Origin: Candidatus Omnitrophota bacterium
GTDB taxonomy: Bacteria > Omnitrophota > Gorgyraeia > 2-01-FULL-45-10
Direction: 5' to 3'
Length of the DNA stretch: 64,000 nt
NCBI GenBank assembly: GCA_030695905.1
Contig: JAUYOL010000043.1
Span: 64,998 to 128,997, forward strand
The position numbers were made by a program, and so were the translations under genes. How positions within the stretch are numbered: the stretch's first letter is position 1; the number at the start of each line of letters is the position of its first letter. Below, piece by piece: positions 693-20,059 of the stretch. The notes beneath the pieces were generated by a model that did no database searches, was not told where the DNA came from, and worked only from the letters and a program-made list of their open reading frames with translations.

Positions 693-703
693 ATTGTCCC
701 CCT

Positions 704-1939: not shown

Positions 1940-1985
1940 AATTTATCCTCTCTTGTATTCAACTGCGTAATCAATTGAGCAAATT

Positions 1986-2035: not shown

Positions 2036-2040
2036 TTGCT

Positions 2041-2071
2041 ATACAAGTAAAAAAGATAGATTTTTGGTAAC
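2041..2071 (-). promoter_or_regulatory. conserved 31-nt motif copy B, upstream of amtB1-glnK1
   Basis: Plus strand ATACAAGTAAAAA-AGATAGAT-TTTTGGTAAC. Confidence 0.6.
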
Positions 2072-2158
2072 CAATTTCGCTTTGCGAAATTGGCCCTGAG
2101 CGAGCCATGAAATCCGACTTTATAGGAGGATTTCAGGCGAGCCGAAGGACCTTTCCAC

Positions 2159-2512
2159 TCATCCTATCGCTACGCCATCTCTTTCACCCGTCCTTATTCT
2201 CACGCACTCCGCAAGATCCAATACGAATATCTTCCCATCACCTATATTGCCTGTTTTTGCGCCCTTTGTTATGGCCAATACCGTAGCTTCAACATATTTT
2301 TCATTTACAGCGATCTCGAGCCTTACCTTTTTCAGAAGGTTGCCCGTCTCCTTTTTGCCTCTATATACTTCGGTTTTACCTTTTTGCCTTCCGCACCCCA
2401 GGACATTGCTTACGGTCTTTAGGTGTACCTCCGCCCTATCCAGTTCCTGCAGGACATCTTCAAGTTTATGTGGTTGAATAATCGCGATTATAAGCTTCAT
2501 ATAAAACGTCAC
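2159..2512 (-). CDS. glnK: nitrogen regulatory protein P-II (GlnK, copy 2)
   Basis: 117 aa, about 80% identical to copy 1. Confidence 0.9.
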
Positions 2513-2518
2513 CTCCTC

Positions 2519-3754
2519 TTAGTCTAACAGCGTATATGCACTCTCTTCATGCTGTGTTATATCAAGGCCTATTACCTCTTCCTCATCCTCGACTCTTAGA
2601 CCCATAACAGCATCAAGGACCTTTAATAATATAAAGGTCACGGCCACCGAATATGCCATCGTGGCTAAAACACCGATTGCCTGGGTAGCGAATTGCGCTG
2701 AATTTCCAAAAAACAACCCATTATTTCCAGCGGCATTTACTATCTTTTGCGCAAATAAACCTGTTGCAAGCGCTCCCAACGTTCCTCCTACACCATGAAC
2801 ACCAAAAGCATCGAGTGAGTCATCGTAGCCGAATTTTAATTTGATAACAGCTACAGCTGTATAGCAAACAAGTCCTACCAGAATCCCTATAAGGATCGAC
2901 GACAGAGGTGTTACGAATCCCGCTGCGGGAGTAATTGCAACAAGTCCCGCTACGGCGCCGGTTGCTCCGCCAAGTATTGTTGGTTTTCCGGTAACTTTCC
3001 ACTCTATGATCATCCATGTCAACGCGGCTGCAGCTGCGGCGGTATTTGTGGCGATAAAAGCCGAGACCGCGAGCTCGTTTGCACCTAAAGCGCTGCCGGC
3101 GTTAAATCCAAACCAGCCAAACCACAAAAGGGCCGCGCCGATCAGACATAAAGGAAGATTGTGCGGCGGCATAGGTTCTTGGCCGTAGCCCCTCCTCTTA
3201 CCCATATATAGGGCGCACACGAGCGCCGATATACCGCTTGATACGTGAACTACCGTGCCCCCCGCGAAATCCAAAGCGCCCATATTTCTTAACCATCCGC
3301 CCGCTCCCCACACCCAGTGGCAGACAGGATCATAAACAAGCGTCGCCCATAATAGGGTAAAGACAACGTAGGTTGAAAACTTCATTCTCTCCGCAAAGGC
3401 GCCTGTTATTAGGCCCGGCGTAATTACCGCGAACATCATCTGATAAATCATGAAAAGAAGATGCGGGATAGTTGAGGCATAATCCGGATTGGGGGCCATT
3501 CCTACACCCTTTAAACCCATCCATGCCAGGCTTCCTATAAAATGGCCCTGATCGGGACCAAAGGACAGACTGTACCCAAAAAGCACCCATTGAATACTGA
3601 TAAGGCACAGTACGAAAAAAGACTGCATTATTGTGGCGAGGACGTTTTTACGCCTTACCAGTCCTCCATAAAACAGCGCAAGGCCCGGGAATGTCATTAA
3701 CATGACAAGCGCAGTCGATATTAAGACCCATGCTGTATCGCCTGAATTAATCAT
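2519..3754 (-). CDS. amtB: ammonium transporter Amt (copy 2)
   Basis: 411 aa, about 85% identical to copy 1. GGAGG RBS upstream of the ATG. Confidence 0.9.
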   Translation of the reverse strand: MINSGDTAWVLISTALVMLMTFPGLALFYGGLVRRKNVLATIMQSFFVLCLISIQWVLFGYSLSFGPDQGHFIGSLAWMGLKGVGMAPNPDYASTIPHLLFMIYQMMFAVITPGLITGAFAERMKFSTYVVFTLLWATLVYDPVCHWVWGAGGWLRNMGALDFAGGTVVHVSSGISALVCALYMGKRRGYGQEPMPPHNLPLCLIGAALLWFGWFGFNAGSALGANELAVSAFIATNTAAAAAALTWMIIEWKVTGKPTILGGATGAVAGLVAITPAAGFVTPLSSILIGILVGLVCYTAVAVIKLKFGYDDSLDAFGVHGVGGTLGALATGLFAQKIVNAAGNNGLFFGNSAQFATQAIGVLATMAYSVAVTFILLKVLDAVMGLRVEDEEEVIGLDITQHEESAYTLLD

Positions 3755-3969: not shown

Positions 3970-5226
3970 CTAAAAAGTGATGAGCGCGTCCATGCTGAAT
4001 GTCAGCTGATCCCTCTTGCCGGTGCTAAATACTGATCTGTCAGAGTGGTCATAACGAATTTCCGGCCGAAACAACAAGTTGGATAGTACCTTGTCTTTTG
4101 GGAACGGCTTTATTGCTACGCCTGCGGTTACCTCATAGTAGTTGGCGCCGACAGGAGCGGCGTTAGAAAAACCGCTGGCTGCATCTTTATACCACTCCAG
4201 TCGGGTATTCAGAGTAAAATACTGATTAAGCGCATAGCTAGCATATCCGGCCACACCCCCCCACTGCTTGACCTTATCTTGCGATCCGGGGATCTTTGGA
4301 GTCACAACGTAGTCAGTGCCCAGGCCGAGGCTTAATTTATCATTGATCTTATGTGTTATAACTAAATCCATGGCTGTCCACCAGTTGGCGCTGTCACCCG
4401 TAGGAAGATTGTGTCCGACACCGATCGGGAATTCAGGGCCTTCCGTCATCGTAAAGATGGCGGTAGTCTTGTCGCTGGGTGTAAAGGTTACACGGCCCAA
4501 TAGATCCAAAGCATGGTTGGCATCTCGCAGCGACTGGTTCCATCCCAGCGTTGTGCCAAGGTCAAACGTCCATTGCGGGTTCATTATATAGGTGGCCAGA
4601 ACGCCCGTCTGCGTACCCGGCTCAGCATAGAGAAACTGGTAACTATAAGAATAGAATGCCTTGGCAGGATCACCGAAAGCCCCGTAAATATTGGCGCTGA
4701 ATTGTTCAAATCCGGCCAACTCGATCCACTTACCTACTCTAAGCCGTACAGGTATATAAGGAAGAGCCATATCCGCGTAAGCTTGGAGAAGGTCCCATTG
4801 ATTATGACCCGTTTGGGTATCCCACATGCCATTAGAGTGTATGAAGGCAGCGTCCGCGCCAAAGATGCCCTCCATGCGCCCGCCTATGTCAAACTGCTTC
4901 TTGGTCGGATCTACCGTGCGTTCGACGTTCAAGCTGACCTTATTAAGGGTTATGTCGCTTTTGAAGTTGTTATATCCGATGAAGGTCGGCCCTACGCCTT
5001 CCTGAGGCGCTGTAGCGTCATAAAACCAGCCCGCCTGGGTGTATCCATAGATCTTAATGCCGAGCTTATCTAAAGGTTTGGCTAAACCCACCTTGTCCAT
5101 GCCGGTCATAAGCAGCCCTCTCGACGGCGCAGTTAGAACATCCTCATCGGCATATACCCAGGAATGCGCTTGCGAGTACACAAGGAATGATACCAATATT
5201 AAAGTAATTTTTTTAATCAGTTCCAT
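3970..5226 (-). CDS. outer-membrane beta-barrel (porin-like) protein
   Basis: 418 aa with a signal peptide, alternating amphipathic strands and a C-terminal ...ALITF with terminal Phe. It is the first gene of the transcription unit leading into amtB2-glnK2. Confidence 0.55.
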   Translation of the reverse strand: MELIKKITLILVSFLVYSQAHSWVYADEDVLTAPSRGLLMTGMDKVGLAKPLDKLGIKIYGYTQAGWFYDATAPQEGVGPTFIGYNNFKSDITLNKVSLNVERTVDPTKKQFDIGGRMEGIFGADAAFIHSNGMWDTQTGHNQWDLLQAYADMALPYIPVRLRVGKWIELAGFEQFSANIYGAFGDPAKAFYSYSYQFLYAEPGTQTGVLATYIMNPQWTFDLGTTLGWNQSLRDANHALDLLGRVTFTPSDKTTAIFTMTEGPEFPIGVGHNLPTGDSANWWTAMDLVITHKINDKLSLGLGTDYVVTPKIPGSQDKVKQWGGVAGYASYALNQYFTLNTRLEWYKDAASGFSNAAPVGANYYEVTAGVAIKPFPKDKVLSNLLFRPEIRYDHSDRSVFSTGKRDQLTFSMDALITF

Positions 5227-5249
5227 ATTATCTCCTTTTTATGTACCTC

Positions 5250-5295
5250 AAATAAAAAAAGCGTCTTATTTATCCACATGGATCAATAAGACGCC
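5250..5295 (-). terminator. porin leader terminator-like hairpin T2: GGCGTCTTATT-(14 nt)-AATAAGACGC plus TTTTTTTATTT
   Basis: 10-bp perfect stem followed by a U-run, ending about 20 nt before the AAAGGAG RBS. Confidence 0.55.
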
Positions 5296-5304
5296 AATGT
5301 CCTA

Positions 5305-5337
5305 AAATTTAAATAAAAAAGCGCTCTTTTCGAACGC
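5305..5337 (-). terminator. porin leader terminator-like hairpin T1: GCGTTC-GAAAA-GAGCGC plus TTTTTTATTTAAATTTT
   Basis: The 3' flank GCGCTTTTTTATTTAAATTT is nearly identical to the amtB1 leader flank GCGCTATTTTTTTATTTAAATTT. Confidence 0.45.
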
Positions 5338-5349
5338 CTTAGTTTATCA

Positions 5350-5363
5350 ACACAACTATGTGT
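5350..5363 (-). promoter_or_regulatory. conserved hairpin P1: ACAC-ATAGTT-GTGT, 13 nt downstream of motif copy C
   Basis: Same stem-hexaloop architecture, with A at loop position 1 and G at position 4. Confidence 0.45.
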
Positions 5364-5376
5364 CTTAATGCTACTC

Positions 5377-5407
5377 ATACAAGTAAAAAGAGCTTAGTTT
5401 TGGTAAC
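5377..5407 (-). promoter_or_regulatory. conserved 31-nt motif copy C, upstream of the porin-HTH-amtB2-glnK2 unit
   Basis: Plus strand ATACAAGTAAAAA-GAGCTTAG-TTTTGGTAAC. It overlaps the last 4 codons and stop of the sigma factor gene. Confidence 0.6.
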
Positions 5408-5933
5408 TCCTTTTTATCTCGCATCTCAGTTTCTCGCATTTTGCCCTGATCTTTTTCCTTAATTTTATCACGGCGACGTGTGAAATGCCAAGCTTTTCAC
5501 CCATTTCACGCACTGTCAGGCCGTCGGTGCTCATTTTTATAATAGCGATTTCCCTGTCATTAAGGTCATTTTTATAGGCTTCATCATATAATATTTTGTC
5601 CTCAACCTGTTCTTCACAGGACGATTCGTTTAAAGCTAATACTTCTTCGAGCATAGTTCCGTCTTCATCTATGGGGCTTTCGATGCTCTGGATCTTTACT
5701 TTATCCATGGATGTCCTTATGTAATTCTTAAGATGAAAGTAGCAGCCCTGCAATATATAGCTGTCCGTTTTATCATCAAGGATGCCCTTGCCAGACTTGA
5801 TCCATAGATGGATAACCGCCTCCTGGTATAGGTCATCATCGTTAAAGAACGTAAAATGACCGTTGAGCCGATGACTTATCCTTCGGATCGTAGGCGTAAG
5901 TCTGGTTATTAATGTTTCGAAATTATCTTTCAT
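5394..5933 (-). CDS. ECF-type (sigma-24-like) RNA polymerase sigma factor
   Basis: 179 aa. A region-2-like segment DDLYQEAVIHLW...YFHLKNYIRT and a region-4 HTH LTVREMGEKLGISHVAVIKLRKKIRAK. Confidence 0.55.
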   Translation of the reverse strand: MKDNFETLITRLTPTIRRISHRLNGHFTFFNDDDLYQEAVIHLWIKSGKGILDDKTDSYILQGCYFHLKNYIRTSMDKVKIQSIESPIDEDGTMLEEVLALNESSCEEQVEDKILYDEAYKNDLNDREIAIIKMSTDGLTVREMGEKLGISHVAVIKLRKKIRAKCEKLRCEIKRSYQN

Positions 5934-5942
5934 GTTAATAAA

Positions 5943-5981
5943 GAAGCCCTTCGATGCATATCAATGCATACAAAGGGCTTC
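5943..5981 (-). terminator. rho-independent terminator downstream of nadE
   Basis: Minus strand GAAGCCCTT-(21 nt, internally palindromic ATGCAT..ATGCAT)-AAGGGCTTC followed by TTTATT. Confidence 0.55.
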
Positions 5982-6025
5982 TTTGCTCCTTAATATTTTT
6001 ATCTCTTCAGCGAGATAAATTCCTT

Positions 6026-7705
6026 TTAATATTCTTTATACTTGTTCGTTATCGGCATTCTTCTATCTTTGCCGAATGACCTTGGCGTTATTCTTATGCC
6101 CGGCGGTGACTGCCTCCTCTTGTATTCGCTCTTATCGACCATAGCAACAACTCTCAAGACATCGTCTTTACTGCATCCCGAGGATATGATCTTCTTCATA
6201 TCGCGGTCATCTTCAACATACGCTTTGAGTATAGGATCTAATTTGCTGTAAACCGGCAATGTATCGCTGTCTTTCTGATCGGGCTTGAGCTCCGCGGTGG
6301 GCTCTTTTGTTAAGACAGAATCCGGTATTATATGAGAAATAGAATTTCTATATTTGCAAAGCTTATAGACAAGGGTTTTTGGCACATCTTTTATTACCGC
6401 GAAGCCTCCTGCCATGTCTCCATACAGAGTGGCATAGCCGGTGCTCATTTCCGATTTATTTCCCGTAGTAAGGACGAGCCACCCAAATTTATTGGACAGG
6501 GCCATCAATATATTGCCTCTTATGCGCGCCTGCAGATTTTCCTCCGCTATGTTCTTTTCTGATCCAGCGAATAGCGATGATAAAGTAATAAGGTATAATT
6601 TAAATATCTGTTCTATGGAAATAGCCTCATATCTTATGCCTAAGTTACCAGCGACCTCTCTCGCGTCGTTTGCTGATTCTTGTGAAGAATATCGAGACGG
6701 CATGAATATGCCCGTTACGTTATCCTTGCCAAGGGCATCTACTGCCAACGCCGCTACTATGGCGGAGTCTACGCCACCGCTTAATCCAATGGCAACTTTT
6801 TTAAAACCATTCTTGTTTACATAATCCTTTAGTCCCAGCAGGAGCGCTTTATATGCCTCTTCCGCATTTTCTACCATGACAGCAACTTTATTTTTTAATA
6901 CAGAAGGTTTCTTATCTATCTTTTTCTTTATGGTCAATATTTTACTATCAGTTCTTCTGTGCGCAGCGTTTAAAGCAATATCCGCGAAAAGCAGCTCTTC
7001 TTCAAAAGCCTTGGCTCTCGCGATTATCCTGCCCTTATCGTTTGCCACCATACTGCGGCCGTCAAATACAAGTTCATCCTGTCCCCCTACCATATTTACG
7101 TAGGATATAAATATCTTGTTGCTTTTTGCCGCCTTCTGGATAACATTTTCTCTTTCCTTTATCTTTCCGATATGATAAGGAGAAGAGTTTATTGCGATCA
7201 TTACTTGAGCGCCGGCCAAAGCACACATTTTTACGGGCCCGGACTTATGCCATATGTCTTCACATATACTGAGTCCAAATACTATATTATCCATCTTAAA
7301 GATAAAAGGAGATTTACCCTGTTTAAAATAACGGACTTCGTCGAATACCCCATAATTGGGCAATAGCATCTTGTGGTATATACCGAGAATTCTTCCCTTA
7401 TATATTACCGCGGCGGCATTGTAAACATTGGCGCCCTTACTATCCGCGAAGCCGATTATAGCTGCTACATCCCCGACAGACTCGGCTATCTCCTTGAGTA
7501 TGTGCACATTTCGTTCGATAAAATGCGATTTAAAAAGCAGGTCCTCTGGCGGGTATCCGGTTATAGCCAACTCAGGGAAAGAGACTATGTCAGCTCCCGC
7601 ATTTTGAGCCTTATTTATACAGTCCATTATTTTCTCGGCGTTTAGATACAGGTCTCCTACTGTGCAATTAACCTGCGCTAAAGCCAATCGTATTGTTTTC
7701 TTCAT
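6026..7705 (-). CDS. nadE: glutamine-dependent NAD+ synthetase
   Basis: 559 aa. N-terminal CN-hydrolase/nitrilase domain plus a C-terminal NAD synthase domain with the PP-loop GLSGGVDSA. Confidence 0.85.
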   Translation of the reverse strand: MKKTIRLALAQVNCTVGDLYLNAEKIMDCINKAQNAGADIVSFPELAITGYPPEDLLFKSHFIERNVHILKEIAESVGDVAAIIGFADSKGANVYNAAAVIYKGRILGIYHKMLLPNYGVFDEVRYFKQGKSPFIFKMDNIVFGLSICEDIWHKSGPVKMCALAGAQVMIAINSSPYHIGKIKERENVIQKAAKSNKIFISYVNMVGGQDELVFDGRSMVANDKGRIIARAKAFEEELLFADIALNAAHRRTDSKILTIKKKIDKKPSVLKNKVAVMVENAEEAYKALLLGLKDYVNKNGFKKVAIGLSGGVDSAIVAALAVDALGKDNVTGIFMPSRYSSQESANDAREVAGNLGIRYEAISIEQIFKLYLITLSSLFAGSEKNIAEENLQARIRGNILMALSNKFGWLVLTTGNKSEMSTGYATLYGDMAGGFAVIKDVPKTLVYKLCKYRNSISHIIPDSVLTKEPTAELKPDQKDSDTLPVYSKLDPILKAYVEDDRDMKKIISSGCSKDDVLRVVAMVDKSEYKRRQSPPGIRITPRSFGKDRRMPITNKYKEY

Positions 7706-7725
7706 ATTTTAATCTCTTTATCCCC

Positions 7726-7751
7726 ACAAAATAAAAAATGCCTTCCGGCAT
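7726..7751 (-). terminator. nadE leader hairpin ATGCC-GGAA-GGCAT plus TTTTTTATTTTG (attenuator-like)
   Basis: Short 5-bp stem with a U-run, located between the promoter and the RBS. Confidence 0.35.
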
Positions 7752-7789
7752 ACTTTGCCAAAAGACATTCTTTGTCTACTACAATAAGT

Positions 7790-7817
7790 ATTATATCACA
7801 CTTCGGTAGTTTGTCAA
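7790..7817 (-). promoter_or_regulatory. near-consensus sigma70 promoter TTGACA-N16-TGaTATAAT for nadE
   Basis: Minus strand ttgacaaactaccgaagtgtgatataat. Confidence 0.55.
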
Positions 7818-7850
7818 TCAAGTAATTCCTGCTTTTTAATTTCTAACCCG

Positions 7851-8567
7851 TTATTTCTTTTTCATCGAGTCTATCAGGATGATAGCGTCCGCTATATCGC
7901 GCATGGAGCGCCTTGTATCCATACTCTGTCTTTGTATCTTCTTAAACGCTTCCTCTTCGGAAAGGCCCTGCTCTCTCATAAGGATACCCTTGGCCTTTTC
8001 AACGCTCTTCCTGGTTTCTAATTCTTCCTGTATTACCTTAGTCTTTACCATAAGTTCCGCATTTTCAATAACTATCGCAGCCTGGTTTGCCACAGAGAAC
8101 AGTATGTCTATCTCTTCCTTCGTGAACTTGTGCGGTTTTGAAGTATAGTTATTTAATACGCCTATTACCCTGCCCTTAACTGAAAGAGGAACGGATAGTA
8201 GAGATCTTAAGCCTTCCTTCTTTGCTATATCCTTATATTTATATTCCGTCTCTTTGGATATGTCGTATATTGCCTGCGGCTTATTTTCTAAAGCGGCCTT
8301 TCCGGCTATCCCTTCTCCTATATGCAGCGGCGGTTTTTTGTTGTATGTTTCGCTCATAGATTGAGTCGCTTTAAGCACAAGCGTTTTTGTCTTATCATCC
8401 ACCAGGCTTAAAGAGCATATCTTGGAATTCATGATCTCCGCGGTAACCGTTACGATAAGTTTTAGAATATCTTCCAGGTAGAGGTTTGAGGTAATAGTTC
8501 TGCTGACCTTGGAGATTGCCTCTAAGCGTTTCGCGTGAGATACTGCCCTGCTGTCCTTTTTTGCCAT
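7851..8567 (-). CDS. GAF-ANTAR regulatory protein (RNA-binding antiterminator family)
   Basis: 238 aa. N-terminal GAF-like region and a C-terminal ANTAR-like segment EKAKGILMREQGLSEEEAFKKIQRQSMDTRRSMRDIADAII. Confidence 0.6.
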   Translation of the reverse strand: MAKKDSRAVSHAKRLEAISKVSRTITSNLYLEDILKLIVTVTAEIMNSKICSLSLVDDKTKTLVLKATQSMSETYNKKPPLHIGEGIAGKAALENKPQAIYDISKETEYKYKDIAKKEGLRSLLSVPLSVKGRVIGVLNNYTSKPHKFTKEEIDILFSVANQAAIVIENAELMVKTKVIQEELETRKSVEKAKGILMREQGLSEEEAFKKIQRQSMDTRRSMRDIADAIILIDSMKKK

Positions 8568-8571
8568 TTGG

Positions 8572-9534
8572 TTATCTCTTTCCTTCCGATTTAGGGGCTA
8601 TGTTCGTCCCGAGAAATTTCGTGTCAGAGTCTTTGGGCATTTCTTGTATCCAGCCATTATTTAACCCCAACTTGTGCGCTTCGTCAACTTTTATTTTGTA
8701 CTCCTCCTCCAGTATACCGCAAGACAGCTCTTTAAAATCACATGCTTTATAGGTCGGATAGTATTGGCTCATTATACTCAAGTAGGCATCTTTAGAGATG
8801 TTTTCCTTGATAAATTTTAAACTTTCGGTAGTTCCAGAAATATTGTGCGGCAATACCAGAAGCCTTATTATGAGGCCTTTTATCGCAATATCATCGTCGT
8901 CCAAAATAACGTTTCCTGCCTGTCTATACATCTCCTTCACCGCTGTCCTATCGCGTTCAACGTAATCGGGAGCATCGGAATACAGCTTGGCCATCCTGTT
9001 ATCCGAATAGCGCATATCAGGCAAATATATGTCGATAATGCCATCAAGTAGACGTATAGTGTCTGTAAGGTCATAACCGCTTGTATTATATACGATGGGT
9101 ATCGAAAGGCCGTTATTGACGGCTATTTCCAACGCCATCAATATCTGAGGCACATAATGCGTAGGATTGACCAGGTTTATATTATGACAGCCCGCTTGCT
9201 GCAGTTCTAACATTATCGAGGCAAGTTTCTCTATCGATATTTCGTCGCCTCCATCAAGCTGGCTGAATATGTAGTTCTGGCAGTATGCGCATTTCATATT
9301 ACAGCGCGAGAAGAATATCGTTCCGGAGCCTTTAGAGCCGGATAGCGCGGGTTCCTCGCCGTGGTGGGCCATGTAACTGTATATAACGGGATTGTATGGC
9401 GCCCTGCAATAACCGAGTTTGCCCGCGAACCTATTTACTTTGCACCGGCGCGGACATATTGCGCATTTACTTAAAGAGTCTTTCAGCAAGTCAAGCGCAA
9501 TACGCACTTTCTTTAATTTATCATCTTTATTCAT
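8572..9534 (-). CDS. radical SAM enzyme, PFL-activase-like (AmmeMemoRadiSam-type)
   Basis: 320 aa. CNMKCAYCQN is a CxxxCxxC motif, and an N-terminal Cys cluster CAICPRRC...C is also present. Confidence 0.6.
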   Translation of the reverse strand: MNKDDKLKKVRIALDLLKDSLSKCAICPRRCKVNRFAGKLGYCRAPYNPVIYSYMAHHGEEPALSGSKGSGTIFFSRCNMKCAYCQNYIFSQLDGGDEISIEKLASIMLELQQAGCHNINLVNPTHYVPQILMALEIAVNNGLSIPIVYNTSGYDLTDTIRLLDGIIDIYLPDMRYSDNRMAKLYSDAPDYVERDRTAVKEMYRQAGNVILDDDDIAIKGLIIRLLVLPHNISGTTESLKFIKENISKDAYLSIMSQYYPTYKACDFKELSCGILEEEYKIKVDEAHKLGLNNGWIQEMPKDSDTKFLGTNIAPKSEGKR

Positions 9535-9548
9535 ACGAGAAAAAGGCC

Positions 9549-10262
9549 TTAAGAGGGATCCGCTCTGTGTGTTATATTCTTATCGATGAAATTTATTATG
9601 GCTTTTTCTTTTTCAGGAGTAAGGTGCGTGAAAGCTATCCCCGTGCCGGGATAGAAATGCGGTTGAAGTTCTTTATCCGCCAACCATATGACCCTGCCCG
9701 CGGTATCGGTAAATTTTATCTCACCGGGAAGGTCAATCTCCATTTCTATTTGGCTGTTGATGGGGAATGTGTATTTGGAGAATATATACATTCCCGCGGC
9801 GCTCAAATTGAGGATTTCTCCTTCGAACACTTTGGGGCGCTTTTGATTTCCAACGAGCCAATACTTCACTTTTAGGCTTATATCGAGCCGTTTGAACCTG
9901 CGCCTCAAAGGCATGGCCAGAACCGCAGCGTCATAAAAACTTTTTATAGCGGACTCCTCGTCAGGATATACTTCGAAAGTATTTTCCAGCTTTACTATTT
10001 TAAAGAGTTCTATTACCTGAGGCGATACGTTAAGGAATTTAATCTTACCTTTATGGTTAAGTACATTTTTGTAGGCTATGGCGAGGACTGAAAGACCGCT
10101 GTAGTCCACCATGTTGACATTTTCGAAGTTTAAGATGAAGTTAAGCTTGCCGGAGCCCAGGAAGTATCCTATCATCTCGATGATATCAGAAGAGTTGATA
10201 TCAATATTGCCTTCGGCATCGATAATAGTTATATTTCCGCTTTCCCTGAATCTTATCGGCAT
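9549..10262 (-). CDS. STAS (anti-sigma antagonist-like) - PilZ fusion protein
   Basis: 237 aa. N-terminal SpoIIAA-like STAS segment, then PilZ motifs RRRFKR ... NLSAAG. Confidence 0.6.
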   Translation of the reverse strand: MPIRFRESGNITIIDAEGNIDINSSDIIEMIGYFLGSGKLNFILNFENVNMVDYSGLSVLAIAYKNVLNHKGKIKFLNVSPQVIELFKIVKLENTFEVYPDEESAIKSFYDAAVLAMPLRRRFKRLDISLKVKYWLVGNQKRPKVFEGEILNLSAAGMYIFSKYTFPINSQIEMEIDLPGEIKFTDTAGRVIWLADKELQPHFYPGTGIAFTHLTPEKEKAIINFIDKNITHRADPS

Positions 10263-10265
10263 AAA

Positions 10266-10406
10266 TTATGGTTGGCGGAAGAAGAACGTGCTTACTCCTC
10301 TGCCCATCCTGTTGACATCCTTGCCTACCCCGGAGACGGTCTCTCCGCAACCCATTAATATGGCAGTCACGCTTATTAACAATAAAAATAATAGCATCTT
10401 TTTCAT
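10266..10406 (-). CDS. entericidin EcnA/B-family lipoprotein (46 aa), not in the ORF track
   Basis: Translates to MKKMLLFLLLISVTAILMGCGETVSGVGKDVNRMGRGVSTFFFRQP. It has a lipobox LMGC and the entericidin-like G.G.D....G motif. RBS AGGGAGGG. Confidence 0.5.
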   Translation of the reverse strand: MKKMLLFLLLISVTAILMGCGETVSGVGKDVNRMGRGVSTFFFRQP

Positions 10407-10425
10407 TATTACCCTCCCTCTAACG

Positions 10426-10959
10426 TTATCTCATCAGCCTTCTGGGATCCTGCGGCTCCCCTTCTTTGCGTATTTCGAAATGCAGGTGCGGCTGCATAGA
10501 TTTCGAAGCGGCATTTCCGGTTTTGCCGACATATCCTATCAGATCACCCTTATTTACGCGCTGGACCGGTTTAATGGCCCAGTCCGCAAGATGTCCATAG
10601 TATGTTTGGTATCCGCCCGGATGGTATATCATTACATACTTTCCGTATCCGGTAGGTACTTCTGCTTTAAATGCGGTGCCGCTCTTTGCCGCGTAAACAG
10701 GCGTTCCTGTAGGAGCTAAAATATCTATCCCGCTGTGCGAACGGCCGTTTCGCCTTTTAGAGCCAAATTCACCATCGCCATGCGCGTCATTACGCACCAC
10801 CATCTTTGAAGGCGATGTATGTACGGGGCGTATAAAAAACGGCTCCCTTATATTGAATATCAATAATGATACAGGATCATATAACAATATGGTAGCCGCT
10901 ATCGTTATGGTGATAATAGCTGCTACGATAATAAAATCTCTCTTCATCGCGCTCTTCAT
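10426..10959 (-). CDS. M23 family metallopeptidase (membrane-anchored)
   Basis: 177 aa. HSGIDI...HLH motifs and an N-terminal TM segment. Confidence 0.75.
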   Translation of the reverse strand: MKSAMKRDFIIVAAIITITIAATILLYDPVSLLIFNIREPFFIRPVHTSPSKMVVRNDAHGDGEFGSKRRNGRSHSGIDILAPTGTPVYAAKSGTAFKAEVPTGYGKYVMIYHPGGYQTYYGHLADWAIKPVQRVNKGDLIGYVGKTGNAASKSMQPHLHFEIRKEGEPQDPRRLMR

Positions 10960-11024
10960 ATTACAGAAGAAGCCATATTTCTTTTTATAAGAAGATATGG
11001 CTTCTTTATATATATTTTAGGTTA

Positions 11025-11420
11025 TTATTTTTCAGCTTGCTCGGCCTGCACAGGTTCCTGAGCTTTTTCTTTTAGAGCTTCGGAGGGTACTTTTATTGTG
11101 CCTTCGCCCGCTTTCACGACAGTTTCAGCGGTACCTGTTATAGGCTCGGTTATCAGTTCTTTTGTCTTGGCAACATCACCCGTGGTGACTTCTCCTACCC
11201 TTTTTACGGTTGTGCTAACCACGTCAGCGCTTCTCTTCGTTGTGTCCGCGACTACTGAAGCAGACTCTTCAGTAACCCTGGCAGGGTAACCAAGAAGATT
11301 TCTCCAGAAATTTTTTACTTTTGTTCCGAACGTCTCTTTTTCTGCGGCAAATGACGCAGATACAAACATAGCGGATATTAATAGTGCCGCTATCGCTACT
11401 ACAAATACTCTTCTCTTCAT
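11025..11420 (-). CDS. secreted hypothetical protein
   Basis: Signal peptide followed by a low-complexity TVK/TGE-rich region. Confidence 0.4.
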   Translation of the reverse strand: MKRRVFVVAIAALLISAMFVSASFAAEKETFGTKVKNFWRNLLGYPARVTEESASVVADTTKRSADVVSTTVKRVGEVTTGDVAKTKELITEPITGTAETVVKAGEGTIKVPSEALKEKAQEPVQAEQAEK

Positions 11421-11475
11421 CTTGCTCCTCCTTCAATTGATTTGATGTACACTATATAATATATATCGTATTTTT

Positions 11476-11835
11476 TCAAGTAAAAACGATCATCTTTATT
11501 GCCACTGCCAGAAGTATCACTCCAAATATTTTTTTCAGAATCATGTCAGGTATTGTCTGCACCATTTGGGCGCCTACCAACCCGCCTACTATAAAGCCCA
11601 ATGCTATGAACATCGCTATATCCAGTTTTACATTTCCGCTGTAATAGTATCTCAATGCCGCCAGCAGTGTTATTGGGGGCACCATTACCGCAAGAGAGGT
11701 TCCCTGCGCCTGATGTTGGGTCAGCCCGAATATATAAACAAGTACCGGCGTAAGAAGGATGCCCCCGCCTAATCCCATAAAACCGCTGAAGATGCCTGCC
11801 GCAAGCCCTAATAATATGTAGGATAGCCAAATCAT
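11476..11835 (-). CDS. TauE/SafE (DUF81)-like membrane protein, short form
   Basis: 119 aa with 4 TM segments and a GxGGG motif. Confidence 0.45.
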   Translation of the reverse strand: MIWLSYILLGLAAGIFSGFMGLGGGILLTPVLVYIFGLTQHQAQGTSLAVMVPPITLLAALRYYYSGNVKLDIAMFIALGFIVGGLVGAQMVQTIPDMILKKIFGVILLAVAIKMIVFT

Positions 11836-11852
11836 AGGACGCCCCCCGCATT

Positions 11853-12341
11853 CTATTTCAACAAAGACATTACCAGTTGGTTTACGACTTTTCCGTCTGC
11901 TTTCCCTTTAACTTTTTCCATTACGGCTTTCATGGCTTTTCCGGTATCAGCCTTGGACGTTATACCCATCTCTTGTATGGTGGCCTTTATGATAGACAGA
12001 AGCTCTTCCTCACCCATTTGGGCAGGTACGTATTTTTGCAGGATATCAAGTTCTGCCTTCTCTTTATTTACAAGATCAGGCCTATTACCCTTCTCAAACT
12101 GCGCAATAGACTCCTTGTGTTCTTTTATCATCCTCTGGATCACTGAAACTATATCTACATCTTCCAGCTTTTTAACTTTTTTTGATATTTCGGTATTCCT
12201 TACAGCAGCAAGCAGCATGCGCATTACAGACAATCTTACATTATCCTTGCCGCGCATCGCATCTTTCATTTCCGAATCAATTTTTTCGTATAGATCCATG
12301 AGTGGTGCTCCTGTGTTAATAGACAAAAACATCTCCTTCAA
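11853..12341 (-). CDS. GatB/YqeY domain protein (start probably at an internal Met)
   Basis: Segment DAMRGKDNVRLSVMRMLLAAVRN matches the YqeY family. Confidence 0.6.
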   Translation of the reverse strand: MKEMFLSINTGAPLMDLYEKIDSEMKDAMRGKDNVRLSVMRMLLAAVRNTEISKKVKKLEDVDIVSVIQRMIKEHKESIAQFEKGNRPDLVNKEKAELDILQKYVPAQMGEEELLSIIKATIQEMGITSKADTGKAMKAVMEKVKGKADGKVVNQLVMSLLK

Positions 12342-12409
12342 ATCGCCTTTATATTAGGAAAAAGAGATTTTAAAGAGTATAAAACTTTAGTGAGGAGGGA
12401 AGTCGAAAG

Positions 12410-12610
12410 TTAAATCTTCACAACTTTCGTTGCCTGATCTCCCTTAGGGCCCTGGACGATATCAAACTGAACCTTATCGCCTTCTTTCAGGCTCTTGAAT
12501 CCTTCGCCTTCTATTGCGGAGTGATGAACAAAGACGTCTTTACCAGTGTCAGCAACTATGAAGCCGTACCCTTTTTTGTCATTGAACCACTTTACTGTTC
12601 CTTGCGCCAT
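12410..12610 (-). CDS. cspA: cold-shock protein (CspA family)
   Basis: Starts [18 protein letters not shown] with the RNP1 motif. Start chosen at the internal Met of track ORF 12410..12646. Confidence 0.85.
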
Positions 12611-12731
12611 TTTATCTTTTTCACCCCCTTCCAACAAAAAAGCCACCCAAGGCTCACAAAAAGCCTTTGATGGCTACATAACTATTTTTTGAAAATATTC
12701 AGCACTAAGTACCTACTTAAACTATAGGTAG

Positions 12732-12760
12732 AGTATATATCATAATTTACGTATTGTCAA
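12732..12760 (-). promoter_or_regulatory. sigma70 promoter TTGACA-N17-TATACT for cspA, with about 110-nt 5' UTR
   Basis: Minus strand ttgacaatacgtaaattatgatatatact. It overlaps the last codons of def. Confidence 0.45.
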
Positions 12761-13216
12761 GCGGTTAGAGAATAATAGTTTCTTTATGGGGCTCAAATAG
12801 TCTATTATGAGTTTGCCCAATAAATGATCGATTTCATGCTGAAGTACGCGCGCTAACAGCCCATGTGCGGTTATTTTTACGGCCTCGCCGCCCTCATTTA
12901 AATATTCAACCGTGACTTTTTTCGCTCTTTTTACCTTTATAGCGGCTTCGGGGACGCTTAAACAGCCCTCTTCCTGCGTTTCACAGCCGTCCTTTTTAAC
13001 TACTACGGGGTTTATTAATTTGATAAGGCCGTCTCCTATGTCTATTACAGCAAGCTGTTTATCTATGCCTACCTGGCACGCGGCCAGGCCTACCCCGCCC
13101 TTTAGGTACATGACCTTTGCCATTTCGTCCAGCATCCTCTTTTCTTCATCAGATACCTTAAGGACTTTGGAGGTCTTTTTTCTTAAGCAGGGATTTGGGA
13201 GGCAGACTATTTCCAT
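12740..13216 (-). CDS. def: peptide deformylase
   Basis: Motifs GLAACQVG, EGCLSVP and HEIDHL. Confidence 0.9.
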   Translation of the reverse strand: MEIVCLPNPCLRKKTSKVLKVSDEEKRMLDEMAKVMYLKGGVGLAACQVGIDKQLAVIDIGDGLIKLINPVVVKKDGCETQEEGCLSVPEAAIKVKRAKKVTVEYLNEGGEAVKITAHGLLARVLQHEIDHLLGKLIIDYLSPIKKLLFSNRLTIRKL

Positions 13217-13930: not shown

Positions 13931-14308
13931 TTAGCTCTCCTTCTGTAGGTTGTATATCAAATCACATAAGAATTTTAAAAATGTATTCTTATTGTCTTCT
14001 TCTATTTCGATAAATTCCACACCGATGTCGTAAGGCGCGTTATCTTCCAGGCTTAATCTCTTTTTCCATACTACCTTACCCTTGGCGTGTACCGGATTAT
14101 GAGTGTCATATATTTCAAGCTTGAGCTCAATAGTGCCCGATACCTTAATATCTTTCGCGTTAGATTCTAATCTCAAGCCGTCAGCGGATATATCTTTGGT
14201 TATAGCGCTGTATATGCTGCCGGTTTCAGGGACTGTATACGTCACCGGTATAGGCGATTTAAGCCTAATATACTTTCTTCTCTCGATAAGCCTGTCTTTT
14301 ATCTTCAT
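13931..14308 (-). CDS. PilZ domain protein
   Basis: Motifs RRKYIR and DISADG. Confidence 0.65.
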   Translation of the reverse strand: MKIKDRLIERRKYIRLKSPIPVTYTVPETGSIYSAITKDISADGLRLESNAKDIKVSGTIELKLEIYDTHNPVHAKGKVVWKKRLSLEDNAPYDIGVEFIEIEEDNKNTFLKFLCDLIYNLQKES

Positions 14309-14433
14309 ATTATCAACATGTTATGATGAATGCCAAAAAGGAATGATAGCATACGCATCGCGATGCGTCAATGATAAAAAAACAGAGCCACTCGTTATAA
14401 AACAAATGGCTCTGTTATCTTTGAATCACTTAA

Positions 14434-14799
14434 TTATTTAGTCGTACTTGCAGTTGAAGGCTCCATAAGCGGATCCGGCTTTACAGGGCTCTTATCGTAG
14501 TCGGGTATCGGGAAAGTGGCTAAATCGACCGCTCCAGAGATAGTTCTCGGAAACGCCTTTTTAAAACCATCCCATGCTCCGGCCGTGAGGCCTAATGCCG
14601 CGTTCTTTGACTCATTAGTAACCTGATATATAGATAGCGGTATGTCGGTCCAACCCAGCAAAAGATTCTTCAAGCCTCTTCCGGCCTTGTTCATCGCGCC
14701 TTTGCAAGCGTCAGAAGAAGCAGATTCAGCTGCATATGATAATCCTGAAAAAGATACTGCCAATAAAATTATGATTGCTACACAAAATAACTTTTTCAT
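14434..14799 (-). CDS. small secreted protein (paralog of 20501..20833)
   Basis: Signal peptide. Shares W.[DE][IL]P..IY...,  G...G and FP.PIP blocks with the paralog. Confidence 0.45.
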   Translation of the reverse strand: MKKLFCVAIIILLAVSFSGLSYAAESASSDACKGAMNKAGRGLKNLLLGWTDIPLSIYQVTNESKNAALGLTAGAWDGFKKAFPRTISGAVDLATFPIPDYDKSPVKPDPLMEPSTASTTK

Positions 14800-14908
14800 T
14801 CATTCACCCCCTTTTTTTACGTTATTCATCAGGGAGTATATCACAAGTTTCGCATAAAGTCAAATCTATTTAGTTCGTTGAATCCACCAAGCCAATTGAA
14901 AGCGGATT

Positions 14909-16555
14909 TTATACGTTGCCCTCAAGCCACTTCTTTATAGTGTCGAGCACGGCTGGATCGGTTTCATAGTATAGCTTATGAACTCCATCATTGATAGGCT
15001 TGCCAAGAAAATGGCCTAAATATCCATAATATATTAGCTTGTGATTTTTATTTCCGCTATCTTCCAGAGCCTTATCCAGGTTAGAAACATCCTTTGGGGG
15101 AATCAGTTCGTCTTCCTTGCCTTGTAATATGAGTACGGGGCACTCAACCTTTCTGATAATGTCTATAGGGTTCTCCTGTAAATCTTCTCTTAGCTTTTTC
15201 AGGAAGCATCTCGTTCTTAATATCGTCGCCCAGTCGCCCTTTATATTTTTTACTTTGTCTATGGTCTCCATGCGGGACTTTATAGTCAATTTAAGATACT
15301 GCTCGTCCCATTTGCGTTTAGCGGCCATCTCATTAAGGCTGTCAAAATTAAGATCCATCTGGCCGGCTGAAGTTATCAAAGGCGACAATAGAATCAGCGC
15401 TTTGACATTTTTTGTTTCAGATGCTATCTTTGCGGCATCTAACGCGCCCTTGCCGTGACCTATGAGAATGATCTTATCTATATCGGCGTCTTTTCTTCCG
15501 AATAAGTAGTTCAAGGCCGCTTTGGCGTCATCGAACGCTTCGCTATCGGTAGTAGATTTACTATCGCCGCCGCTTGATCCTATTCCGCGCTTATCAAATC
15601 GTAAAGTTAAGAAACCATTCCTTGCAAGTGTATCGCAAAGGTGTGTAAATAATCCTTGCTCTTCCCTGTCGCTTTCTTCCGTACCGCTTATCAAAAGTAC
15701 GGCAGGATGAATGCCCTGATCTTTGGGTGCGGCGAGGGTTCCCGTAAGAGCTGTTTTTTTGTCGTTAATCTTCACCTCTTCTGTTGTGTAGGTGTCTGAT
15801 TTTAAAATAAATGGCCCTGCTTCGAAATCTTTAGGCGTAAAAGTGCGTGTTATCTTTATTTTTTTTTCAGGAAATTCTATCCCTACAAGGCTCCTGCCCG
15901 TTTTTGTGACAAATAGCATGCCTTGCGGAAAATTTCTCATCTTTATCAGCAGACATTCCACCTTCGTCTTCCTCGACCCTATTTTGATATATTCATCCCT
16001 GATAGATGTGAGTATTAAGAGTTTTTTCATAGGTGGCAGAAGCGGCGAATAGCACATTACCACATTAAAAGCCTGCGCTTGGCCTATGTCAAAATCGTAA
16101 TTTTCAAGGATCGGCAGGTATGTTACCGGAGAATATTCTTCGAATACAAATGTGTTGTGTTTTATAGGCAAGTTGGCAATGTAAGCGAATTCGGACATGG
16201 CTGTTCCAACAAAGGATATATTATCGTTTATATTATCGAGAAGCACGGTATTTTGGGCTCCACCGCCCGATTCTTCTCTTGTATAATTGATTAAAGAGTA
16301 CCTTTTGTCCAGGGTCAGCCGCGATTTTGAGTCTGTCAATAATGGCTCAAACGGCATGGAGCTTTGCGATTTATAGAGCAGGTTTTCGTCGGTAATGAAC
16401 TTGTCCACTTTTATGGTGCCCATGTCACGGCCGTCAATATTTACCGTAAAATGTAAAAGCTTGTGTTTTTCTTTATCCAGATAAAACAGCGATGCAGTGA
16501 AGAGTATCGCGCTTACTACGAAGATTATGAATACGGTAAGATAAACTTTTCTCAT
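14909..16555 (-). CDS. membrane-anchored protein with C-terminal alpha/beta-hydrolase fold
   Basis: 548 aa with an N-terminal TM segment. C-terminal dienelactone-hydrolase-like fold, but the nucleophile elbow reads GHGKG with no Ser. Confidence 0.45.
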   Translation of the reverse strand: MRKVYLTVFIIFVVSAILFTASLFYLDKEKHKLLHFTVNIDGRDMGTIKVDKFITDENLLYKSQSSMPFEPLLTDSKSRLTLDKRYSLINYTREESGGGAQNTVLLDNINDNISFVGTAMSEFAYIANLPIKHNTFVFEEYSPVTYLPILENYDFDIGQAQAFNVVMCYSPLLPPMKKLLILTSIRDEYIKIGSRKTKVECLLIKMRNFPQGMLFVTKTGRSLVGIEFPEKKIKITRTFTPKDFEAGPFILKSDTYTTEEVKINDKKTALTGTLAAPKDQGIHPAVLLISGTEESDREEQGLFTHLCDTLARNGFLTLRFDKRGIGSSGGDSKSTTDSEAFDDAKAALNYLFGRKDADIDKIILIGHGKGALDAAKIASETKNVKALILLSPLITSAGQMDLNFDSLNEMAAKRKWDEQYLKLTIKSRMETIDKVKNIKGDWATILRTRCFLKKLREDLQENPIDIIRKVECPVLILQGKEDELIPPKDVSNLDKALEDSGNKNHKLIYYGYLGHFLGKPINDGVHKLYYETDPAVLDTIKKWLEGNV

Positions 16556-16558
16556 ATT

Positions 16559-17137
16559 TTAAAAGTCCAGCGATGCGTTGTCTGCCGTTAGCCTGCCGGA
16601 CCACTTTCCAAAACTTTTCTTGGGTTTTTCACCTTCTCTTAACTCAAGAAATATCTCGGTCGGGCAGTTTAAAATTATTTTTTTGAAGGCATACGATTCG
16701 TTCGGCTTTAAGACCGTTTTCGGATGAGTGGACAGATAGGGTATATTCACATAAGGAAGAACGCTTCCCCCCAGGGACGGCTCCTGCGGATACATCTGGG
16801 TCTGGTAGATAACAGCGTTGTCTTTATCCAGGAAATTTATTATTAGGCATAAATCGAGTATCTCCTTGGCGCCTTTATTAGTGACGGTTCCTTCTATTAT
16901 AGGTTTTCCCTTGAGAGGGCCGGTATTCTCTATTCTTGCGTCCAGCTTTTCAATGGCAATATATTTTGAATATATTTTTGCCTTGGCCTTGCCCAAGAGT
17001 TCGTGATAACTTGTCTCGAACTCCTTAGCCTTGAACTCAAGGTATATGAAATATCCCGCCAGTGTCAGTACCAGCACCAGAGCTATTACGAAGCTCGATA
17101 CTAACCCGACTATAAGGCTCTTCTTCTTTACAATCAT
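16559..17137 (-). CDS. hypothetical membrane-anchored protein
   Basis: 192 aa with an N-terminal TM segment. Confidence 0.35.
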   Translation of the reverse strand: MIVKKKSLIVGLVSSFVIALVLVLTLAGYFIYLEFKAKEFETSYHELLGKAKAKIYSKYIAIEKLDARIENTGPLKGKPIIEGTVTNKGAKEILDLCLIINFLDKDNAVIYQTQMYPQEPSLGGSVLPYVNIPYLSTHPKTVLKPNESYAFKKIILNCPTEIFLELREGEKPKKSFGKWSGRLTADNASLDF

Positions 17138-17670
17138 TACCTATTTCCCTTAATTTCGTTTTTGTAGCGTTCCCTTATAGAATTGAATATTGATATATAC
17201 TCGTCTGTCCTGTAATCAGGATATGTCCATGGCCAGGCATTGAATTTTTCACCCATGAAATGCAGCGTTACTTCGGCATATATATTATTACCGACATGCA
17301 TCCTGTGCGAATAATCTTTTGTGGAGAAGAGCACGAGCTTGGCCAGGTCCAGGTATCCCGGATCTATATTTATTGCGCGTTTATTATTAAGAGAAAATTT
17401 ATCTTCTATCTTATTCGAGACCAATTTCATCTTTTCAATATTTTTTAAAGAGACCAGTTTTTTAAAACTTAAGAATTTACGCTTTAAATTAATGCCCATC
17501 TCTTTGTTGTAATAATCCGTGTAAGAAAAATCGATAATAGTGCTTTCAAAGTCGATTTTGTTTTTAAATCTTTTTTCCAGTAAAAGCTTTGCTTTGTCAA
17601 AGAGCTCCGTATCGTTGGATATGAGTCCTGTAATTAGCTTAACTTTTCCGGCGGTTCGTATATTACCCAT
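17137..17670 (-). CDS. DUF4416-like protein
   Basis: N-terminus MGNIRTAGKVKLITGLI resembles DUF4416, recalled from memory. Confidence 0.35.
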   Translation of the reverse strand: MGNIRTAGKVKLITGLISNDTELFDKAKLLLEKRFKNKIDFESTIIDFSYTDYYNKEMGINLKRKFLSFKKLVSLKNIEKMKLVSNKIEDKFSLNNKRAINIDPGYLDLAKLVLFSTKDYSHRMHVGNNIYAEVTLHFMGEKFNAWPWTYPDYRTDEYISIFNSIRERYKNEIKGNR

Positions 17671-18127
17671 GCAGGATATCGGCGAGATGGGTGTGCGCGG
17701 GCTCTTTTAACGCGATAAATTTTACACCGCAATGAAATAGTCTTTTGCCGAACGAATCCTGATCCTGCGCGTCTTTAATCCATACGACCTCGGCCTCGAC
17801 TTCCACTACTTTCTTTTTTTCCGGTATATATGCTTTAATATCCATTATTGAGCCTTCAGGCAGTTTTTCATCTATAAGAAGTTTCATTCCACCGCCGGAC
17901 ACATTTATGGTCCTGCCGGGTTTGAGATGAGATTTTTTTTCTACGCTATATTCAACTTCCAGGTCCTTGTCAAAACGCTGATGCTTGCGCCTCTCTTCGC
18001 TGTCCCAGTATTCTTCTATTTTGGCGCGGGGCGTTATTCTTTTATTCGTTATTCTCTCATGTGCCCATAACATAAAGAGCGTTACGGATAGTAATGCCAA
18101 AAAGCATGTCCCTACAATAAAAAACAT
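17663..18127 (-). CDS. PilZ domain protein with N-terminal TM helix
   Basis: Motifs RRKHQR and NVSGGG. Confidence 0.6.
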   Translation of the reverse strand: MFFIVGTCFLALLSVTLFMLWAHERITNKRITPRAKIEEYWDSEERRKHQRFDKDLEVEYSVEKKSHLKPGRTINVSGGGMKLLIDEKLPEGSIMDIKAYIPEKKKVVEVEAEVVWIKDAQDQDSFGKRLFHCGVKFIALKEPAHTHLADILHG

Positions 18128-18487: not shown

Positions 18488-18515
18488 CGTTTTAGTTCTC
18501 CTAATATTTTACTTA

Positions 18516-20050: not shown

Positions 20051-20059
20051 AAAAAGGGA

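Follow-up and report, generated by a model that had tools for sequence, protein, structure and literature searches.

A STAS–PilZ fusion family of Omnitrophota with tyrosine in place of the phospho-acceptor serine of anti-sigma factor antagonists

Described systems closest to the STAS–PilZ protein

Antagonists of the SpoIIAA/RsbV type are usually encoded together with an RsbW/SpoIIAB-type kinase and a PP2C phosphatase. We analysed a gene, located in a 64-kb stretch of DNA (the whole of which is hereafter called the window), whose product has a STAS domain in its N-terminal half and a PilZ domain in its C-terminal half. This protein has its fold in common with SpoIIAA and RsbV, finds its best sequence and structure matches among them and retains the D-x-x-G at the start of helix alpha-2. 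In contrast to these antagonists, it has Tyr for the phospho-Ser, carries a fused C-terminal PilZ domain and scores just below the cut-off of the TIGR00377 model. With the receptors YcgR, MotI/DgrA, Alg44 and MapZ it shares the RxxxR and [D/N]hSxxG motifs and a barrel followed by a C-terminal helix; the known partners of PilZ in such receptors include PilZN and glycosyltransferase, whereas the partner domain here is STAS. The protein combines traits of SpoIIAA/RsbV with those of a PilZ adaptor, but without the phospho-Ser that defines the antagonists.

A sensor and a STAS domain are likewise combined in one polypeptide in the stressosome-type proteins RsbR and YtvA (LOV-STAS), and YtvA, which is without phosphorylatable residues, signals through its sensor domain. 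The order of the domains in RsbR and YtvA is opposite to that of the present protein, where STAS is N-terminal and the input would be c-di-GMP, received through PilZ. We found no RsbS or RsbT genes near the STAS–PilZ gene.

Three other systems join c-di-GMP to sigma-factor control by different means. In Pseudomonas, the HsbA–HsbR–HsbD pathway ties a STAS antagonist to c-di-GMP signalling and lifestyle (PMC6482189; bioRxiv 10.1101/2024.11.25.625174). There, the STAS protein stands by itself, is phosphorylated and has a diguanylate cyclase and anti-sigma factors as its targets, whereas in the STAS–PilZ protein c-di-GMP would be the input and the PilZ domain is fused. In Streptomyces, c-di-GMP directly governs the interaction between sigma-WhiG and its anti-sigma factor RsiG without phosphorylation (PMC13232838), a control that PMC12448109 credits to Gallagher 2020; unlike the STAS–PilZ protein, RsiG binds c-di-GMP itself by helical motifs and has neither STAS nor PilZ. 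In Leptospira, the PrsW–PilZ fusion LIC_20173 is the proposed link between c-di-GMP and a membrane anti-sigma pathway of the RsiW-type ZAS class (PMC12943098). Site-1 proteolysis is the step proposed for that fusion, whereas the STAS–PilZ protein would act by STAS binding, and the candidate partner encoded beside one group of its relatives (group C, described below) has a shortened head and lacks an extracytoplasmic domain.

The reading that we favour, with moderate confidence, makes the STAS–PilZ protein a receptor of c-di-GMP: its STAS interaction module would be gated by PilZ instead of by phosphorylation, and the partner of this module would be membrane- or envelope-related.

Domain architecture and distribution of the family

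The STAS–PilZ ORF lies on the minus strand and encodes 237 amino acids from an ATG start, the stop codon being included in its coordinates. The gene, its domains and its motifs are as follows.

9549..10262, minus strand: STAS–PilZ gene (ORF call, both domains by Pfam, homolog clusters)
9948..10253, minus strand: STAS domain, residues 4-105, SpoIIAA/RsbV-like fold (PF01740; profile matches to SpoIIAA 1th8, TM1442 and RsbV; Foldseek)
10089..10106, minus strand: STAS loop D53-Y54-S55-G56-L57-S58, with Y54 at 10101..10103 (alignment to SpoIIAA)
9582..9905, minus strand: PilZ domain, residues 120-227, beta-barrel and C-terminal helix (PF07238, structure model, Foldseek)
9888..9902, minus strand: PilZ motif 1, R121-R-F-K-R125 (RxxxR), in the interdomain linker (family alignments)
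9792..9809, minus strand: PilZ motif 2, N152-L-S154-A-A-G157 ([D/N]hSxxG) (family tally)

The first-pass annotation had proposed a fusion of STAS and PilZ, to be confirmed by HMM. In the Pfam scan, PF01740 matched residues 4-105 with 53.9 bits against a cut-off of 22.6 (E 1.7e-14), and PF07238 matched residues 120-227 with 45.1 bits against a cut-off of 22.5 (E 1.4e-11). Both domains are above their cut-offs and both folds are seen in the structure model; the claimed architecture is correct, far beyond chance. The NCBIfam model TIGR00377 (anti-sigma factor antagonist) gave 52.7 bits, slightly below its cut-off of 53.45, and the MlaB-type Pfam model STAS_2 (PF13466) gave 21 bits, below its cut-off of 29.2.

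An AlphaFold2 model, built from an alignment of 114 homologs, showed two folded domains (mean pLDDT 79, pTM 0.50). In Foldseek searches the N-terminal half resembled, at a target TM-score of 0.75-0.85, SpoIIAA, RsbV and TM1442; for the C-terminal half the matches were c-di-GMP-bound PilZ structures, namely those of Alg44 (4rt0 and 4xrn), YcgR (5y6f) and MotI (5vx6). None of the Foldseek matches was a solved structure spanning both halves. Y54 is the first position of helix alpha-2 (residues 54-69), and the PilZ half consists of six strands within residues 130-211 followed by a helix at residues 216-231. The linker, residues 114-125, is the sole internal segment of low confidence (pLDDT below 50). 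The model, at this pTM, defines no contact between STAS and PilZ, and its low linker confidence together with the pTM is compatible with a mobile hinge.

An identical protein is on deposit from a Candidatus Omnitrophota MAG. The homologs fall into at least 561 clusters, all named members of which are Omnitrophota; the best 120 of these clusters all contain both STAS and PilZ, are about 237 amino acids long and show 58-83% identity. When 1.84 billion representatives were searched exhaustively with a profile, 24 clusters were returned at E <= 1e-30, about 20 of them full-length members of the core family. The same search also retrieved more distant proteins with STAS and PilZ, which form a second lineage. 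This second family (P0149-P0167) was considered as a guide and rejected, as the genomic context of P0164 held no signalling partner and the PilZ motif 2 of P0164 was degenerate. From species-representative genomes we recovered 35 loci, all of them from Omnitrophota MAGs (some titled 'uncultured Planctomycetia'), by a scan with family-specific peptide patterns, from which absence from other phyla does not follow.

Databases already label both domains automatically. Full-text searches of the literature gave no description of a STAS–PilZ protein, and neither the PilZ review preprint (bioRxiv 10.1101/814665) nor the Leptospira survey (PMC12943098) mentions a STAS fusion. The family is uncharacterised, and its architecture is present in every Omnitrophota locus that we recovered.

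The switch position of the STAS domain and the ligand motifs of the PilZ domain

In the profile alignment, the family sequence V-D-Y-S-G-L-S lies over M-D-S-S-G-L-G of SpoIIAA, placing Tyr54 in the column of the phospho-Ser. The first Ser of DSSGLG is the phospho-acceptor, since the PDB entries include wild-type DSSGLG and mutant DASGLG. In a regex-free tally from tblastn alignments, 114 of the 115 related loci have the loop sequence D-Y-x-G and the remaining one D-F-T-G; none of the peptide patterns by which these loci had been fetched overlaps this loop. The STAS domain is therefore without the conserved phospho-Ser, the very absence that the first-pass annotation had named as a refuting result, and in none of the 115 loci does helix alpha-2 begin with the phosphorylatable Ser/Thr of the pattern D-S-[ST]-G. 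The neighbouring residue 55 is no conserved acceptor either, because A, V, S, N, I, L or P may stand there, in most cases a residue other than Ser.

Within the 150 top-ranking representatives from the exhaustive search, the switch column held Tyr only in members or fragments of the STAS–PilZ family (28), the remaining STAS proteins having Ser (80) or Thr (3). As Tyr was confined to the family within this set, we regard the change from Ser to Tyr as a signature of the fusion.

The first-pass annotation had suggested that the protein couples c-di-GMP levels to a partner-switching cascade of the RsbW type. We therefore have to weigh a classical phospho-switch, in which an RsbW/SpoIIAB-type kinase encoded elsewhere acts on S58 or S55 and PilZ supplies a second input. 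The residue S58, one helical turn past Y54 on helix alpha-2, is Ser in 97 of the 99 unique family sequences and might serve as an alternative phospho-site, a point that also counts against the gating scheme that we prefer. The STAS domain is closest to true antagonists, as seen from its TIGR00377 score and from SpoIIAA and RsbV as its best PDB matches, and the genome search spanned 64 kb. Against such a switch, all 115 loci have Tyr or Phe at the canonical acceptor position, and most members carry A, V, I, L or P at residue 55. The searches for the enzymes point the same way. Pfam scans and precomputed calls detected no HATPase_c (RsbW-type), SpoIIE/PP2C, Sigma70, GGDEF or EAL domain among the ORFs examined across the window, and clustering of the flanking ORFs of about 105 related loci gave no kinase, phosphatase or sigma gene as a recurrent neighbour. 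In 1.16 Mb of the flanks of relatives, tblastn with approximate query sequences, a weak test, matched no SpoIIAB/RsbW-like kinase; an equally weak test with approximate RpoE and SigW queries matched a single ECF sigma gene in these flanks. On this evidence we consider the classical switch improbable. Of the suggested coupling, the link between c-di-GMP and a STAS module stays reasonable, given a STAS domain and intact c-di-GMP motifs in one protein, but the classical RsbW-type cascade is unsupported, with neither the canonical phospho-Ser in the domain nor a kinase gene in the window.

In PilZ receptors the RxxxR motif usually resides in a flexible linker, and some PilZ domains with good motifs act atypically. 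In the present family, R120, R121 and R125 are invariant in independently chosen alignments; they are also present in all 99 unique family sequences, which extend down to 33% identity to the window's protein, although this tally is partly circular as the selection regex required RxxxR. Motif 2, in the refined definition [D/N]hSxxG of the PilZ review preprint (bioRxiv 10.1101/814665), begins with N in 95 and with D in 4 of the same 99 sequences, followed by S in 98 of 99 and G in 99 of 99. Binding of c-di-GMP by the STAS–PilZ protein is strongly predicted from these motifs.

Genes for c-di-GMP signalling are dense around the family, which favours a PilZ-gated STAS module. The window itself has five stand-alone PilZ genes at 13931..21346 and, at 29361..30884, a GAF/HD-GYP gene. 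In the loci L008 and L013 the STAS–PilZ gene has an inserted HD-GYP gene beside it, and in L027 a REC-GGDEF-MshEN gene lies directly upstream of it. The presence of many small pilZ genes in the phylum has been remarked upon in an Omnitrophota preprint.

Gene neighbourhoods, candidate partners and a proposed mechanism

The STAS–PilZ gene is part of a tightly spaced minus-strand cluster in which we identified the following neighbours.

10426..10959, minus strand: M23 peptidase gene, upstream neighbour, cell envelope (PF01551, 111.5 bits)
10266..10406, minus strand: gene for a 46-aa entericidin-like lipoprotein (lipobox LMGC; Entericidin 16.8 bits, below the Pfam cut-off)
8572..9534, minus strand: radical-SAM gene, downstream neighbour (PF04055, 34.2 bits; NCBIfam activase matches weak)
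7851..8567, minus strand: GAF-ANTAR regulator gene, last in the cluster (GAF_2 79.5 bits, ANTAR 77.1 bits)

The stop codon of the lipoprotein gene is 3 nt ahead of the STAS–PilZ start, and owing to this spacing the two genes are probably co-transcribed. The entericidin-like gene is immediately upstream in 23 of 38 loci of the window's clade (clade A), with gaps of 1-25 nt, and the M23 peptidase gene is kept upstream in many clade-A loci. A strong hairpin (7773..7733) lies beyond the GAF-ANTAR gene; an Rfam scan of 5000..13000 gave sub-threshold hairpin matches only.

The adjacent radical-SAM gene, which the first-pass annotation had pointed out, is indeed there, 14 nt from the STAS–PilZ gene and itself 4 nt from the GAF-ANTAR gene. 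The protein might accordingly be coupled to the radical-SAM enzyme and the GAF-ANTAR regulator, for example in the control of an activase or of nitrogen/NAD metabolism, and the short gaps and a gene order that most loci at or above 53% identity retain would suit this idea. The same order, however, belongs to a long housekeeping block (PanD-Def-CSD-YqeY-(TauE)-131-aa secreted protein-(M23)-STAS-PilZ-rSAM-GAF/ANTAR-NadE), which relatives at 53% identity or more retain and more distant ones have lost. A pentapeptide-repeat/K-channel gene separates the STAS–PilZ and radical-SAM genes in 12 loci, two of which have the HD-GYP gene as well, and the adjacency is confined to the window's own subclade and gone in members below 50% identity. 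Because of the housekeeping block, the insertions and the loss in distant relatives, we interpret the adjacency as lineage-specific synteny and rejected a functional unit of the two genes; a coupling of this kind is highly improbable. As for the nitrogen island near which the gene had been placed, the window has two AmtB/P-II-sized gene pairs at 351..3754, of which the pair 351..1939 was confirmed by Pfam, but these genes are about 6 kb away and show no conserved link to the STAS–PilZ gene.

We divided the family into three groups by residue 55 only, which is a crude marker: group A with D-Y-[S/N]-G, to which the window's protein belongs, group B with D-Y-[A/P]-G and group C with D-Y-[V/I/L]-G. 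In group C, a same-strand partner gene lies just upstream of the STAS–PilZ gene in 24 of 34 loci, at a median gap of -36 nt or separated from it by BacA/UppP. Among the ten loci without it, one has its copy cut by the contig end, seven have short upstream sequence and two, which are near-identical, truly lack it, so that the partner gene is present in 25 of 27 informative loci. The partner gene and the STAS–PilZ gene stay together in at least three neighbourhoods that are otherwise unlike one another.

The partner protein of group C has a head with invariant C3-x25-H29-x3-C33-x2-C36, which a variable acidic linker joins to a C-terminal TM anchor. The head shows the full ZAS zinc-ligand pattern that is typical of anti-sigma factors. 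The zf-HC2 model (PF13490, cut-off 22.2) scored 32.9 bits in L035 and 28.0 bits in L032, and was below the cut-off in L033 (17.7) and L034 (19.4). The best PDB match of the head is the anti-sigma-W factor RsiW, in register from residue 1, with an E-value of 0.14 that is not significant alone. Conservation covers about 45 residues of the head, followed by a low-complexity linker, as against about 80-90 aa for a full anti-sigma domain. Neither clustering of the neighbours nor a rough tblastn with approximate queries revealed an ECF sigma gene recurrently beside the zf-HC2 gene of group C.

This pairing is the sole evidence that links the STAS–PilZ family to anti-sigma-like proteins. A zf-HC2 partner inside the window was ruled out, since a motif scan found no such ORF and tblastn gave no significant match, and we saw no zf-HC2-like gene close to the STAS–PilZ gene in groups A and B.

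The neighbours of all three groups include envelope-related genes: those for the M23 peptidase, the entericidin-like lipoprotein and the 131-aa secreted protein in group A, for a Kdo transferase and an AsmA/YhdP-like protein in group B, and for BacA/UppP in group C. They would fit a sigma-independent c-di-GMP adaptor, in which STAS serves as an interaction or oligomerisation module that docks PilZ on an envelope or transport machine, comparable to MlaB-MlaF or SypA. Such an adaptor would also agree with the missing linked sigma factor and with a zf-HC2 head too short for a complete anti-sigma domain. The STAS_2 score below its cut-off argues against it, as does a neighbourhood with no adjacent mla or ABC-transporter genes, and on this score and context we rejected an MlaB-like identity of the STAS domain. 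In addition, the sole tightly coupled partner gene carries the full ZAS pattern, and much of the context is housekeeping synteny. We regard the adaptor as possible, if somewhat doubtful.

For the favoured reading, that of a STAS module gated by c-di-GMP through PilZ, we infer ligand binding, gating, partner and output as follows. The protein would be cytoplasmic, and its PilZ domain would bind c-di-GMP via the RxxxR of the linker and the [D/N]hSxxG of the barrel. Binding of the ligand may order the linker and alter the presentation of the N-terminal STAS domain, which would then bind or release a partner by its canonical face, where the D-Y-x-G loop between beta3 and alpha2 lies next to the beta2-alpha1 loop. 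With Tyr fixed in the place of the phospho-acceptor Ser, control by a kinase and a phosphatase would be absent and c-di-GMP would take its place. In the sister subclade C, the most likely partner is the membrane protein encoded alongside, which is tail-anchored and has a ZAS (RsiW-like) zinc-finger head. The output of the switch may be cell-envelope-related, judging from the neighbours in all subclades.

Several observations weigh against this scheme. The gating step is one that we infer outright, and the model defines no contact between STAS and PilZ. As no zf-HC2 gene occurs in the window or near the gene in its subclade, the partner may differ or be absent there. In group C itself, the head is short, has no companion ECF sigma gene and matches RsiW without significance. 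The envelope theme is drawn from clade-level synteny that also holds housekeeping genes.

A bolder version of the scheme would hold throughout Omnitrophota: a fused c-di-GMP sensor would have replaced the Ser switch, and the resulting kinase-free antagonist would act on a tail-anchored ZAS-type anti-sigma factor. We consider this version rather unlikely.

STAS modules and PilZ receptors are among the most widespread signalling parts of bacteria, and their direct fusion is uncharacterised in the literature that we searched. If PilZ does gate the STAS module, c-di-GMP in place of phosphorylation would govern the choice of partner, a mode of second-messenger control that is new, simple and open to test, and the switch could feed a sigma factor or envelope functions. 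If the bolder version is true, a kinase-free partner switch would join c-di-GMP to sigma-factor or envelope-stress control. The invariant Tyr offers a mutational handle, and the gene pair of clade C provides a concrete candidate partner. Omnitrophota are uncultured bacteria, often with very small cells, and next to nothing is known of their regulation; the STAS–PilZ family is conserved across those sampled.

PilZ and other c-di-GMP-related genes

The window has five small stand-alone PilZ-domain genes, all on the minus strand and none more than ~12 kb from the STAS-PilZ gene. These are c-di-GMP receptor paralogs, clustered at unusual density. One of the types present, carrying the C-terminal motif EEDNKNTFLKYLCD, was found again in related loci. 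Two further genes, not of the PilZ type, lie at higher window coordinates.

13931-14308 (-), stand-alone PilZ gene 1
17663-18127 (-), stand-alone PilZ gene 2
18128-18487 (-), stand-alone PilZ gene 3
20060-20416 (-), stand-alone PilZ gene 4
20921-21346 (-), stand-alone PilZ gene 5
29361-30884 (-), gene for a GAF + HD_5 (HD-GYP-type) protein
30941-31441 (-), YajQ homolog gene, adjoining the GAF + HD_5 gene

The GAF + HD_5 protein is a candidate c-di-GMP phosphodiesterase, and c-di-GMP binding has been reported elsewhere for the YajQ family. A gene for a REC-GGDEF-MshEN protein (947-2374), whose GGDEF motif reads GGDDF, was observed directly upstream of the STAS-PilZ gene in a single related locus, L027.

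Genes flanking the STAS-PilZ gene

The following genes were considered in the neighborhood and beyond it.

351-3754 (-), two tandem AmtB-sized/P-II-sized gene pairs; the pair at 351..1939 confirmed by Pfam
10266-10406 (-), conserved gene for a 46-aa entericidin-like lipoprotein, ending 3 nt before the STAS-PilZ start
54803-55615 (-), Memo-family gene

The lipoprotein has the lipobox LMGC followed by GETVSGVGKDVNRMGRGV, and its gene is immediately 5' of STAS-PilZ in 23 of 38 loci (the window's subclade). On the other side, a gene encoding a pentapeptide-repeat/K+-channel-pore fusion (pore signature TVGYGD) is inserted between the STAS-PilZ and radical-SAM genes in 12 related loci (L003, L004, L006-L009, L012-L014, L020, L021 and L023); L008 and L013 have an additional HD-GYP-type gene (HHERLDGSGYP) in this interval. 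With the AmmeMemoRadiSam radical-SAM model, whose cut-off is 220 bits, the radical-SAM gene itself reached only 17, so it does not belong to such a system; the Memo-family gene also lies far from the radical-SAM gene. The 'nitrogen island' of the first-pass annotation corresponds to the two AmtB-sized/P-II-sized pairs.

Promoter and hairpin elements

Between the GAF-ANTAR gene and nadE, we observed a perfect sigma-70-type promoter (TTGACA-16-TATAAT with TG) having an 18-bp hairpin and U-run (z-score -4.8) on its 3' side (7733-7817, minus strand). This element could act either to terminate the operon or as a leader attenuator under the control of the adjacent ANTAR antiterminator. Another stable stem-loop (10962-11013), located between the gene for a 131-aa secreted protein and the M23 gene, gave sub-threshold Rfam matches on both strands to plastid psbA 3'UTR hairpins, and is probably nothing more than a hairpin for termination or processing.

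Distribution of the fusion

Several MAG records named 'uncultured Planctomycetia bacterium' (L002, L004, L007, L021, L026, L029 and L036) share the Omnitrophota-type STAS-PilZ gene and its synteny, which suggests that these taxonomic labels are coarse or outdated.

A distant second STAS-PilZ lineage (~23% identity) comprises the profile-search representatives P0149-P0167 and the gene at 8001-8720 of L119. Its STAS loops read S-S-S-G or T-G-G-G, and the second PilZ motif is degenerate. Singletons have the canonical DSSG (P0172) or DESG (P0154). Judging by this lineage and the singletons, there seem to have been several origins, or several divergences, of the STAS-PilZ fusion.
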